IMG/VR virus record: IMGVR_UViG_2740892369_000030
Reading direction: 5' to 3' (one strand)
Length of the DNA stretch: 5,162 bases
DNA from: a virus
Lineage: Duplodnaviria; Heunggongvirae; Uroviricota; Caudoviricetes
Part shown: positions 328-3,389 of the stretch, one piece after another
How the letters are laid out: each line of letters begins with the position of its first letter
How positions within the stretch are numbered: the stretch's first letter is position 1
Translations under genes and position numbers: made by a program
Notes under the pieces: model-generated
Told to the model about the DNA's origin: nothing
Database searches by the model: none
What the model saw: the letters and a program-made list of their open reading frames with translations, nothing else

Positions 328-858
328 CTAACCCGCTTTAGATTCTACCGGATTTGATTGCCTACTTGTCTCGGTTTTTTCCAAAATCTCTCTGACGCAA
401 TCGTCTGGCATATCTACAATCATCAACGCAGCCAGGCGCTTCCTGCCTTCTAGTTGTAATAAATCCTGGTTTTCTTTATCCAGCAGTGTCAGAACCGTCT
501 CTACACCTTTGCGAGCAAGGAGATTGGTTAACTGTTCTCGTTCGTCTTTCGTAAGGAATGAAAGCATCTGTGTAAGTTGATCTCCCTTATCACCAGAACA
601 ACCAAAATTACCACAAATACCAACATCGTTTGGTGATTCACCCTTGCCCTCTTTAAGCCACTCAAGACTAACTCCTTCACTTTCAGAAATTCGTATAAGG
701 ATACTTTCTCTGGGGGCTGGTTGTGTTTGTCCTCCCTTGAAATAGCTGTTTAATGTGTTGATATTGATTCCCCACGCTCTGGCAGCTGCACTTCTTGAAG
801 GGTAGCGCTTTGTAAGCATTCCAATACGTTCAATAACAGGTTCTTTTCCCTGCGACAT
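328..858 (-). CDS. Prophage repressor, positional equivalent of Mu c; N-terminal HTH-like region, no LexA/S24-type cleavage motif seen
   Basis: Minus-strand ORF ending TAG at 328..330. Preferred start is the ATG at 856..858 (protein begins MSQGKEP), which is preceded by AAGAGG with ~7-nt spacing; the ORF-track start at 933 has no RBS. The N-terminal segment SRSAAARAWGININTLNSYFKGG...ILIRISESEGVSLEWLKEG resembles, from memory, the HTH of the phage CI-repressor N-terminal domain family. The C-terminal half (EREQL..., ...REILEK...) is loosely reminiscent of the Mu c C-terminal region. Divergent from ner exactly as c is in Mu. Confidence 0.75.
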   Translation of the reverse strand: MSQGKEPVIERIGMLTKRYPSRSAAARAWGININTLNSYFKGGQTQPAPRESILIRISESEGVSLEWLKEGKGESPNDVGICGNFGCSGDKGDQLTQMLSFLTKDEREQLTNLLARKGVETVLTLLDKENQDLLQLEGRKRLAALMIVDMPDDCVREILEKTETSRQSNPVESKAG

Positions 859-940
859 AAAGATACCTCTTGGTGCTTTTCTAAGGAAAGGTTTCTTTCT
901 ATTTATCCAATTGAAAAATAAGGATAAAAGCAAAAATTAG

Positions 941-977
941 CCAAAATACCAAAAATACCTTGATTTGGTATTTTTGG
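941..977. promoter_or_regulatory. Candidate operator: perfect 11-bp palindrome CCAAAAATACC-N7-GGTATTTTTGG (949..977) plus an upstream direct near-copy CCAAAATACC (941..950)
   Basis: Arms 949..959 and 967..977 are exact reverse complements with a 7-bp spacer TTGATTT. Located in the divergent c-ner intergenic region where Mu carries its O1-O3 operators. Confidence 0.5.
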
Positions 978-988
978 TGATGCATTAT
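961..988 (+). promoter_or_regulatory. Candidate early promoter (Pe-like) for ner-A-B: -35 TTGATT (961..966), -10 CATTAT (983..988), 16-bp spacer
   Basis: Hexamers match sigma70 consensus at 4/6 each. The -35 sits inside the palindrome spacer, so operator occupancy would occlude it. Weak on sequence alone. Confidence 0.3.
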
Positions 989-1028
989 TTACCCGTGCAG
1001 ATATCCGCACGAATATCCGCGCGGGTAA
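989..1028. promoter_or_regulatory. GC-rich nested dyad with tandem ATATCCGC repeats; candidate Ner binding site and/or leader hairpin
   Basis: TTACCCGTGC (989..998) and GCGCGGGTAA (1019..1028) are inverted, 9/10 complementary. An inner inverted pair CGTGC (994..998) / GCACG (1007..1011) and direct repeats ATATCCGC at 1001..1008 and 1013..1020 (12 bp apart) lie inside. Sits immediately upstream of the ner RBS. Confidence 0.35.
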
Positions 1029-1048
1029 CTTTTTAGAATAGAGGAAGT

Positions 1049-1297
1049 ATGAGTAGAAGAGAAGTTTCAGATCACGATTGGCCGCCTGAAATCATCAAGG
1101 CGCGCTTACACATGGCTGGCTTATCACTGCGCTCTTTATCTTTAAAGGCTGGTTACAGCAGGGATTCGCTGAAAAGCGTATTACGTACTCCTTGCCGACC
1201 GTATCAGCAAATAATTGCTGATGCTCTTGGGGTATCGCCTGAAGAAATCTGGCCCAGTAGATACCAGGTTAAGAGCTATATGAGAAAGGCGTCATGA
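1049..1297 (+). CDS. ner: Ner-like DNA-binding protein (Mu Ner / Nlp family, early negative regulator)
   Basis: 82-aa ORF; RBS GAGGAAG 4-5 nt upstream of the ATG. The segment LSLRSLSLKAGYSRDSLKSVL...QQIIADALGVSPEEIWPSRYQ matches recalled Mu Ner (LSLSALSRQFGY...EQIIANALETKPEVIWPSRYQ). Stop TGA at 1295..1297 is 1 bp before the A start, as in Mu. Confidence 0.9.
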   Translation: MSRREVSDHDWPPEIIKARLHMAGLSLRSLSLKAGYSRDSLKSVLRTPCRPYQQIIADALGVSPEEIWPSRYQVKSYMRKAS

Positions 1298-1298
1298 T

Positions 1299-3389
1299 AT
1301 GTATGTCATTGCAAAAGAACTGATTGGCGCGCCCGGAATGCCTGCTACAACAAAAGGTATTCGCCAGGCATTACAACGTTACGTACAAGGGAAAAGCTGT
1401 TGTTCCCGTCGTCGCTCAGGCTCTAAAGCAACTGAATACAGCATCGACTGTTTACCTGAAGTGACGCAGCAGGCATTACGTGAACGTTATGCCCTGCAAC
1501 TGATGACGCAAAAAGCCGATGAATCACCGGCTCCGGTGGTGACAAAGGCCAGACGCTCATCTGACGTGGTTGATGCGGTGGAGGCATATCGCGGATCACC
1601 ACAACTGATGGTCGAACGCCTCAATGCCCTGACTGAAAACCAGCGCCAGGTGGCTGATGCACGAATCGCGATCGTCAGCGAAGTGATGAAAGTCGCGCAA
1701 CAACCCGGTTTCAGCTGCGCGAAGGCTATCCGGTTTATCGTTGACAACCTGGCACGTTCACAGCTGGACGAGCGCATTGTGGCAATGGTTGAGACGGCGA
1801 ACGCCAAAAAGGGAAACAGCCGTGCGTTGAGTGAAATCACGCTGAAGCGATGGATTGCGGCCTTTAACAAGGCACAGAACGCCGCTGAACGCCTGCTTTT
1901 ACTGGCACCGGGTAAACGCCAGGAAATAAAAGCCGAAGATATTAACTGGCTGCCCGAATTTCTGGCGCAGTATCGCCAGTCAAACGGCCGACCAATGACC
2001 GAGGCTTACGAGGATTTTGTCGCTGAATGGCAGCACCGGCACGCTGATGAGCCTTATATGCTCGATATCATGCCGTCTTATGACACCATTCGCCGCGCAA
2101 TGAAGAAACTGCCGGAAGTGGTGAAACAAAAAGGCCGGGTGACCGGCAGTGAATACCGCCAGCTTGAGGGATTCACGCGCCGCGACTGGTCCAGAATGCC
2201 GGTGAATTATGTCTGGATTGGTGACGGTCACGGCATGAAGCTGAAATGCGCACACCCGGTTCACGGTCGGCCATTTGCACCGGAAGTGACCTTTGTTATC
2301 GACGGTGGCACGCGCTTTGTGGTGGGCTGGAGCCTTGACCTGGCTGAAAATGTTTTCGCCGTAGCCGGTGCCATACAGCACGGCATTCGCCATCACGGCA
2401 AACCGTTTCTGTATTACTCGGATAACGGCTCCGGGGAAACCGCCGACATCCTGGATAAGGAGGTTGTGGGGATACTGCCGCGACTGGGGATTAATCACCC
2501 GACCGGGATTGCCGGTAATCCGCAGGGACGAGGCATTATCGAACGGCTTAACCGCACATTACCGATGCGCATAGCCCGTAAATACCGCACCTATTTCGGG
2601 AAAGGTGCAGATCGCGAGACGTTACGCAAAACCAACCGCGATTTACGCTCGGCATTTACTGCCCTGCAACAGGGCAAACGGCTGAACGCCCGGCAGCAGT
2701 CAGCGATGCGTGATTTACCGTCCTGGTCTGAACTGATTGATGCCATTCGTGATGGTGTTGAGTGGTACAACAACCGGCCGCACGATGAATTACCGGTGAA
2801 GCCGAACGGCAAGCATTACAGCCCGGCGGAGTTCAGAAAAAAACGCCTGGCGGAAGAGGACACGGAAATTGAATGGCTGTCCGATGTGGAATTGCGGGAC
2901 ATGTTCCGGCCGATGGTGGAACGCCCTGTAAGACGCTGTGAAATACGCTGGCTGAATAATATTTACTACGCGCCCGAGCTGCGTGATGAGCATGGCCGCA
3001 AGGTGCTTATCAGCTATGACATTCATGATGCCGAACGAATTACCGTACGTCGCCTGGATGGCAGCGTGATTTGCGAGGCGGTATGGGACGGTAATAAACG
3101 CGAAGCCTTCCCGGTTAGCGCGGAATACTACAAACAGCAGCAACGCCTTAAAGGCATGCGTAAACGCGCAGAGGAAAAAATCCGTGATGCCGAGGATGAG
3201 GTTGTCAACGTGCTGGAGCACAAGCCGCAGGAGCCCTGGCTGGAAAACATCTATCGCCCGGTAGGTAATACGGTGGCCGTTCAGCAACCTGCCATTGATG
3301 ATGAGCCTGATGAAGAATACGAGCGCAATTTCCAGCGGGGATTGCAGTTGCTCGAAGCGAAATTAAAAGAAAATGACCCGCTGGCCTGA
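1299..3389 (+). CDS. A: Mu-type DDE transposase (MuA homolog)
   Basis: 696-aa ORF. N-terminus YVIAKELIGAPGMPATTKGI parallels the MuA start (WVSPKECANLPGLPKTSAGV). Candidate catalytic triad: D309 in WIGDGHG (codon 2223..2225), D375 in YYSDNGSGE (2421..2423), E415 in GIIERLN (2541..2543), by analogy to MuA D269/D336/E392. Acidic C-terminal tail DDEPDEEYERNFQRGLQLLE resembles the MuA C-terminal MuB/ClpX-interaction region. Confidence 0.95.
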   Translation: MYVIAKELIGAPGMPATTKGIRQALQRYVQGKSCCSRRRSGSKATEYSIDCLPEVTQQALRERYALQLMTQKADESPAPVVTKARRSSDVVDAVEAYRGSPQLMVERLNALTENQRQVADARIAIVSEVMKVAQQPGFSCAKAIRFIVDNLARSQLDERIVAMVETANAKKGNSRALSEITLKRWIAAFNKAQNAAERLLLLAPGKRQEIKAEDINWLPEFLAQYRQSNGRPMTEAYEDFVAEWQHRHADEPYMLDIMPSYDTIRRAMKKLPEVVKQKGRVTGSEYRQLEGFTRRDWSRMPVNYVWIGDGHGMKLKCAHPVHGRPFAPEVTFVIDGGTRFVVGWSLDLAENVFAVAGAIQHGIRHHGKPFLYYSDNGSGETADILDKEVVGILPRLGINHPTGIAGNPQGRGIIERLNRTLPMRIARKYRTYFGKGADRETLRKTNRDLRSAFTALQQGKRLNARQQSAMRDLPSWSELIDAIRDGVEWYNNRPHDELPVKPNGKHYSPAEFRKKRLAEEDTEIEWLSDVELRDMFRPMVERPVRRCEIRWLNNIYYAPELRDEHGRKVLISYDIHDAERITVRRLDGSVICEAVWDGNKREAFPVSAEYYKQQQRLKGMRKRAEEKIRDAEDEVVNVLEHKPQEPWLENIYRPVGNTVAVQQPAIDDEPDEEYERNFQRGLQLLEAKLKENDPLA

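Follow-up and report, generated by a model that had tools for sequence, protein, structure and literature searches.

The window, by which we mean the whole stretch of 5,162 nucleotides analyzed here (IMG/VR virus record IMGVR_UViG_2740892369_000030), covers the left end of a Mu-like prophage of the Sp18 type in Escherichia coli and contains its immunity and transposition control region. From the left end, the gene order is a repressor gene on the minus strand, a ner-like gene, a transposase gene, a gene for a MuB-type ATPase, and two small genes. The repressor gene (positions 328-858, minus strand, ATG at 858) encodes a protein of 176 amino acids, matching RefSeq WP_000077537, which consists of a helix-turn-helix (HTH) head (residues 5-72, positions 643-846), a variable linker (residues 73-92, positions 583-642), and a Mu c-type C-terminal domain (residues 93-176, positions 331-582). 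The transposase gene (positions 1299-3389, plus strand) encodes 696 amino acids, of which the first 70 (positions 1299-1508) are domain I-alpha, a winged helix. In phage Mu, the DNA-binding head shared by the repressor c and the transposase MuA is the textbook account of how lysogeny is coupled to transposition. According to profile matches and structural models, the heads of the repressor and the transposase of this prophage are different folds.

The immunity repressor gene

The protein encoded at 328-858 matches phrog_3037, which is annotated as repressor, with an E-value of 1e-62, and its homologue in phage VW-6B is annotated as C repressor. As in Mu and D108, its gene is the leftmost one and is divergent from ner-A-B. 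On the other hand, RefSeq calls this open reading frame (ORF) a hypothetical protein only, as would be expected if it encoded some other regulator and immunity were encoded elsewhere. We regard this alternative as highly improbable, considering that the ORF has the position and orientation of Mu c, contains the C-terminal domain of Mu c, carries the repressor annotations just given, and keeps its place in a gene order that is constant in every locus examined. With E-values up to 0.001, the window-type repressor family comprised 153 database clusters, versus 24 for the Mu c type.

The TTG of a longer ORF of 201 amino acids was rejected as the repressor start, since ATG 858 has a well-spaced AGAGG Shine-Dalgarno sequence and RefSeq agrees with this start. 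The frame upstream of ATG 858 is open back to TTG 933 (859-933) and encodes ...RKAPRGIF, a remnant of the MxKEPxGxF N-terminal extension of long-form homologues; in those homologues, the palindromic operator AAAGAACC-N4-GGTTCTTT encodes the extension. Directly after the repressor stop codon, a consensus scan gave a terminator-like hairpin (309-336, minus strand).

DNA-binding heads of the repressor and the transposase

The transposase matches phrog_310 (2e-212) and PF09299 (63.8 bits, 1.5e-17), and by these matches it has the C-terminal domain and DDE core of a Mu-type transposase; it is 22% identical to MuA over its full length. Its N-terminus matches PF02316 (28.7 bits against a cut-off of 23.3, E 1.9e-6), the Mu c PHROG at positions 10-71 (E 1.5e-8), and PDB 1TNS by sequence (E 0.008). 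In the AlphaFold model, the N-terminus has a beta-alpha-alpha-beta-beta-alpha order, and its sole confident Foldseek match was 1TNS (probability 1.00), with 32% identity in the structural alignment. On the one hand, this head has the predicted fold of MuA I-alpha (1TNS) and the same place at the extreme N-terminus of a Mu-type transposase. On the other hand, unlike MuA I-alpha, it has no repressor partner bearing the same head. In the remainder of the protein, the rve-type Pfam matches were below their cut-offs, and PF09039 (I-beta) and PF02914 (DDE_2), which are present in Mu-type control loci, were undetected. The window transposase ends in ...NDPLA, and MuA in ...RRKKAI.

The repressor gave no PF02316 match in the Pfam profile search. 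Its residues 20-78 match the CI-type repressor PHROGs 4, 2328, and 8, and the predicted structure of its head contains five helices at residues 8-70. This model superposes on the N-domains of P22 c2, 434 Cro/repressor, SinR, and 186 CI with TM scores of 0.70-0.76 and a Foldseek probability of about 1.0, and the N-terminal domain of lambda cI and the 186 CI structure 6vli were also among the matches. Judging from the model, the repressor head is an XRE/P22 c2-type five-helix HTH. In PF07022, the family of phage 186 CI, the window protein was not listed at E-values up to 0.1; 19 of 40 proteins sharing its C-terminal domain reached this family, with a best E-value of 2.6e-10. Querying the sequences of solved structures with the repressor gave no useful match, and NCBIfam had no model for it or for Mu c.

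When the repressor was compared with the first 134 residues of its own transposase, BLASTP found no similarity (best E = 24). The counterpart comparison in Mu, between c and the transposase N-terminus, gave 41% identity over 64 residues (E = 1e-16), and the repressor head also resembles I-alpha in the Mu-type control loci. For both Mu and D108, the titles of papers of 1985 and 1986 cited in PMC3820752 state that the N-termini of repressor and transposase are alike. In the window repressor, a predicted five-helix HTH of the XRE type stands where Mu c and D108 c carry the winged helix that they have in common with the transposase. The sequence-only reading of this DNA had quoted an N-terminal peptide from each protein, both of which are present in the sequence, and had described the transposase N-terminus as MuA-like and the repressor N-terminus as a CI-type HTH without similarity to it. 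These descriptions hold in the profile search, in which PF02316 was found on the transposase only, in the pairwise comparison, and in the comparison of the predicted structures, in which the two folds differ.

The C-terminal domain of the repressor

The same reading had missed that the repressor is related to Mu c in its C-terminal half. By BLASTP, residues 95-171 of the repressor align with residues 105-183 of Mu c (29% over 80 amino acids), and the match to phrog_7148, the PHROG of Mu c, is confined to residues 91-174 (phrog positions 85-170, E 2e-10). Reciprocally, Mu c matches the PHROG of the window repressor over the C-half only (E 1e-4). An hhalign comparison of 33 repressor homologues with 11 Mu c relatives aligned the C-domains only (E 2e-4). 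The C-half is all-helical in the predicted structure, and the tails are alike, namely ...KAG, KKAG, or KRAV in the window family and KKAV in Mu c, whose tail is ClpXP-sensitive. In short, the window repressor shares with Mu c and D108 c, which combine a PF02316 head with this C-domain, the homologous C-terminal domain and a similar tail. Because its C-half is homologous to that of Mu c, the repressor is a domain-swap chimera, in which a variable linker connects an XRE-type head to a C-terminal domain of the Mu c family. The most fitting description is a domain-swapped form of Mu c that lacks the N-terminal feature by which the Mu c family is defined.

When the C-domain alone was used to query 1.84 billion representatives, 53 proteins were obtained, whose heads were the window-type HTH, the Mu c-type winged helix (n = 8; e.g., P0183, E 8e-7), or other HTH types. 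Since one C-domain is common to 53 proteins with varied heads, it is a common module that carries interchangeable heads. In Mu, the C-terminal domain of c carries oligomerization and regulated stability. No Pfam match to the S24 peptidase autocleavage domain was found in the repressor; in this respect the window repressor is like Mu c and D108 c. Its lack of an S24 domain fits the report that Sp18 is not mitomycin-inducible, being spontaneously induced and packaged (PMC2669165). Compared with lambda CI, P22 c2, and the 434 repressor, the window repressor has the same predicted head fold and putative sites that overlap a promoter, but an all-helical Mu c-type C-domain in place of the S24 autocleavage domain. 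Phage 186 CI (PF07022) is among the structural matches of the head; in the C-terminal domain, no match to it was seen.

Operator-like repeats and the early promoter

The likely operators of the repressor are 9-bp repeats of the type GGTATTTTT, which the sequence shows on the early promoter Pe, at the start codon of the repressor, and in the linker codons. Allowing three mismatches or fewer, GGTATTTTTGGTGAT has 7 matches in the window versus 0.15 expected, and 7 was reached in 0 of 200 shuffles. The cluster at the repressor start codon, which we call O1-equivalent (839-900, plus strand), was read directly from the sequence and holds GGTTCTTTT at 839-847, the inverted pair AAAGATACC/GGTGCTTTT at 859-880, and GGTTTCTTTCT at 890-900. 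It is followed by an IHF-like site, TATCCAATTGAAA (904-916, plus strand), with 2 mismatches to YAANNNNTTGATW; at the equal position, 11 of 13 loci have 0-2 mismatches, and the site is perfect in L022 and L023. A repeat search gave the O2-equivalent cluster on the early promoter (936-981), with the units CCAAAATACC at 941-950, CCAAAAATACC at 949-959, and GGTATTTTTGGTGAT at 967-981 and a perfect 12-bp inverted repeat formed by 948-959 with 967-978. The putative Pe lies at 960-988 on the plus strand, with the -35 hexamer TTGATT at 960-965, a 17-bp spacer, and the -10 hexamer CATTAT at 983-988. All aligned loci keep the positions of its hexamers, with TATAAT in locus L020.

The third array (589-621, minus strand) lies inside the repressor gene, about 350 bp from the other putative operators, and consists of three tandem 9-bp units, GGTATTTGT, GGTAATTTT, and GGTTGTTCT, followed by GGTGAT. 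Within the gene body, the stretch that best matches the Pe arm of the same locus falls in linker codons 77-104 in 12 of 14 loci, and this match is individually significant in 5 of these 12. The linker peptides, which are hypervariable and, in relatives, repetitive (e.g., KEQKNKRAKEQK and PKPPETPTIP), are translations of these operator-like repeats. The linker array may be a distal operator for looping, and such distal sites, a few hundred base pairs from the promoter, recall the flanking sites of phage 186.

To the right of Pe, the repeat search found an inverted repeat at 989-1028 that contains ATATCCGC twice (1001-1008 and 1013-1020) and ranks first in conservation among the non-coding blocks of the family. 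By its position, it is probably the Ner-type operator. The E. coli lineage has direct ATATCCGC repeats here and most other genera have inverted GATAACC-N5-GGTTATC, although the Ner protein of the window is of the type found in those other genera. The palindrome was rejected as a repressor site, since it does not vary with the repressor class.

These comparisons cover 14 related loci, which belong to phage isolates (VW-6B and three Yersinia phages) and prophages of eight genera. Most of the comparative loci came from exact-protein look-ups and IMG/VR, and pattern-based contig scans gave 6 loci (genome) and 7 loci (metagenome). All 14 loci have a cluster at the repressor 5' end, an IHF-like site, a promoter cluster, and a conserved inverted repeat beside ner, in this order. 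In Mu, the order is O1, IHF site, O2/Pe, and Ner region, and the O1-IHF-O2 segment is the transposition enhancer (PMC3145075, PMC3562280). The window follows Mu in the order of these elements, from the operator cluster through the IHF-like site and the Pe cluster to the Ner site, and as in Mu and D108, an IHF-type site separates the putative operators at the repressor 5' end from those at Pe. However, the putative operators are GGTATTTTT-type 9-bp units, unlike the CTTTTCAGTAAT-like sites of Mu, and an extra operator-like array is present inside the repressor gene, unlike in Mu c and D108 c. Nor do they resemble the three fixed 17-bp palindromes of lambdoid CI repressors, as they form arrays of short units whose spacing and orientation vary.

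Covariation of the repeats and exchange of the immunity cassette

All 9 loci with S-Y-F in HTH helix 3 have a purine at base 4 of the half-site in the Pe spacer, and all 15 x-Y-Y loci and both N-Y-F loci have T there. For these 26 loci, the probability of such a partition by helix 3 is about 3e-7, ignoring shared ancestry. Both half-site classes are found with both transposase lineages. As far as the sequences tell, the half-site variants covary with the recognition helix of the repressor but show no such link to the transposase. In pairwise identity, the repressor head and I-alpha are nearly uncorrelated (Spearman 0.03).

Two IMG/VR loci, L042 and L043, have ner and transposase sequences 95-100% identical to those of the window, and I-alpha is identical in L042. 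Their repressors are only 43-44% identical to the window repressor, belong to another class, and are accompanied by GGTTC-type operators. DNA identity with the window is 47% at 859-940, 71% at 941-982, and 97-100% from 983 on, which places a sharp mosaic junction in the early promoter, at about window position 978-984. This jump in identity at 983 indicates that the immunity cassette ends inside the promoter and excludes I-alpha. Relatives with an identical I-alpha but another repressor and other operators have therefore exchanged immunity without the transposase head, unlike Mu and D108. Since the immunity module, comprising the repressor and the operators up to the Pe -10, was exchanged without it, the I-alpha head would not read the repressor-specific bases.

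These results bear on the question of which protein binds the repeats. Two repeat clusters split by an IHF-like site, 760-900 bp from the prophage left end, resemble the Mu enhancer (PMC3145075), and some units are invariant GGTTC; the 9-bp repeats might then be a transposition enhancer bound by I-alpha, with the HTH repressor acting elsewhere, e.g., on the 989-1028 palindrome. We consider this very unlikely, because it is the repressor helix, not I-alpha, that the variable units follow, arrays of both the GGTAT and the GGTTC type occur beside an identical I-alpha, and the 989-1028 block is unchanged across repressor classes.

The site of I-alpha is a separate matter. In control loci L024 and L025, which have matching repressor and transposase heads, the operator motif is TGTATTCA-like and unlike the CTTTTCAGTAAT of Mu, so the motif is not transferable between winged-helix variants, and an I-alpha target inferred from Mu-type controls was rejected for this difference. 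Most likely, I-alpha binds class-independent sequences in or beside the operator region, and islands of this kind persist left of the junction at 889-898, 903-914, and 952-969. In such a case, a direct block of transposition, if there is one, would be steric rather than exerted via the same head. If I-alpha sits on the islands left of the junction, a steric form of the Mu coupling would be kept, and if it sits on 983-1048, the coupling would be abolished.

A rival reading is full decoupling, in which I-alpha has no site in the operator clusters. The enhancer would then be in the block linked to ner-A, at 983-1048 or beyond it to the right, or in some other place, unless the phage largely does without an enhancer, and the repressor would control transposition only via transcription of A and B. 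Consistent with this, the junction at about 983 leaves everything rightward linked to the transposase, the most conserved non-coding DNA of the family lies there at 989-1028, and I-alpha co-diverges with Ner (Spearman 0.52 in pairwise identity). However, the enhancer of Mu is the O1-IHF-O2 segment (PMC3145075, PMC3562280), whose layout and IHF-like site are kept here, together with the class-independent islands left of the junction, and conservation is higher in I-alpha than in the transposase segment next to it (0.54 versus 0.46), which argues that it has a target somewhere. Accordingly, we consider full decoupling unlikely.

Left end of the prophage and neighboring genes

The 5,162 bases have an identical match in E. 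coli strain 97-3250 and are 97-98% identical to an "inserted Mu-like phage" annotated inside two Stx phages. Among 5426 complete E. coli genomes, 231 contain similar DNA, including many of Shiga toxin-producing E. coli, and the chromosomal site differs in each, a pattern expected of a transposable phage. The name "Sp18-like" for such elements is from published work (PMC10132054).

The left end of the prophage, with TG at 78-79, and its first end-type transposase site, ATTTGATACC at 94-103, lie at 78-103 on the plus strand. Matches in E. coli genomes start at window positions 71-77 with flanks that are unlike from genome to genome, the Mu-like insertion annotated in LC727881 begins at window position 79, and the left ends of relatives align at 78-103. 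A repeat search gave the second and third end repeat copies on the plus strand (189-249), ATTTGATACC at 189-198 and TTTTGATAC at 241-249. In relatives, the three copies are at equal positions with lineage-specific variants (TTCAAGATA or TTCTGCA). In terms of a shared core, the left-end copies at 94-103, 189-198, and 241-249 read ATTTGATAC(C), and CAGGTGA occurs at 84-90 and 158-164 and, inverted, at 133-140. Positions 1-77 are flanking DNA outside the prophage, which in strain 97-3250 adjoins the end of the IS66-family element ISCro1 inside the tail-fibre region of another prophage; bases 1-62 also match several lambdoid phages.

The ner-like gene (1049-1297, plus strand) encodes 82 amino acids and matches PF13693 (E 2.5e-19) and phrog_769. 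The MuB-type ATPase gene (3460-4392, plus strand) matches PF09077 (E 2.5e-25) and phrog_296. Downstream of B, the small gene at 4395-4616 belongs to phrog_3375, of unknown function, and the one at 4629-4883 to the PHROG of Kil, a septation inhibitor; neither has a Pfam match. An Rfam search of the window gave no match.

Discussion

We have found two different folds in the heads of the repressor and the transposase, a C-terminal domain shared with Mu c, arrays of short repeats, their covariation with the HTH helix of the repressor, and a mosaic junction inside the early promoter. Binding of the repressor to the repeats, looping, and a Mu c-like regulation without SOS cleavage are what we infer from these observations. 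During lysogeny, the HTH heads would bind class-specific arrays of the 9-bp unit GGT(A/G)(T/C)TTTT, of which one putative operator set lies over the Pe -35 and spacer, the second at the repressor start codon, and the third in the linker codons. The Mu c-type domains would multimerize and probably bridge the three clusters, aided by a bend at the IHF-type site. Pe would then be shut off, ner-A-B would remain untranscribed, and A and B would not be made. Relief would be Mu-like, by protein stability or inactivation, and not by RecA-mediated cleavage.

We consider it likely that this is how the system works as a whole, i.e., that the chimeric repressor silences Pe from the 9-bp arrays while I-alpha of the transposase reads other bases. 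Several observations count against this view. The hhalign probability of the C-domain match is only 46%, and the Pfam HTH_3 match of the window repressor is sub-threshold (E 0.078). The Pe hexamers are weak, agreeing at 8 of 12 positions, and the promoter scan, with its threshold of 9 of 12, did not report Pe, so that Pe is inferred from conservation. The counts behind the covariation ignore shared ancestry. Also, the units at 839-847 and 890-900 are GGTTC-type whatever the repressor class, and AAAAAYACC, the unit to the left of the -35, does not depend on the class either, indicating that not all repeats follow the repressor. Finally, the transposase of L042 seems interrupted further downstream, although that of L043 is not.

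The sequence-only reading had further proposed that the repressor and the transposase recognize different DNA sites and that the lysogeny/transposition switch is differently wired. The first proposal is supported in that the repeat variants track the repressor helix and an identical I-alpha occurs with different sets of repressor and operators. As for the second, the reading head has been replaced, but the layout, with a cluster at the 5' end of c, an IHF-like site, a Pe cluster, a Ner-type site, and ner-A-B, is that of Mu. Considering this layout and the Mu c C-domain, the switch is a replaced reading head on a Mu chassis rather than a wholly rewired one. We tentatively propose a more specific form, which is possible rather than probable. 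Sp18-type phages would have dropped the competition of Mu, in which the same head acts at the same site, and immunity would be an exchangeable cassette of the HTH repressor and three operator clusters, one of them within the linker codons of the repressor. In this form, I-alpha would occupy interleaved class-independent enhancer sites, and the block on transposition would come from occlusion and looping instead of mimicry.

Other repressors are generally known from distant Mu-like phages. In the literature, we found no paper in which the chimera, the operators, or the exchange of the cassette is described; for Sp18-like phages and the Mu-like phages of Yersinia, existing papers go no further than "C-repressor and Ner" or leave the matter undiscussed.

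In summary, the family represented by the window shows that the shared-head coupling of the Mu type is dispensable or can be achieved in another way. Its natural phage pairs with the same transposase and different immunity make the enhancer and the operators separable experimentally. Additionally, the operator-like array in the linker codons of the repressor illustrates in compact form how regulatory DNA shapes the sequence of a protein.

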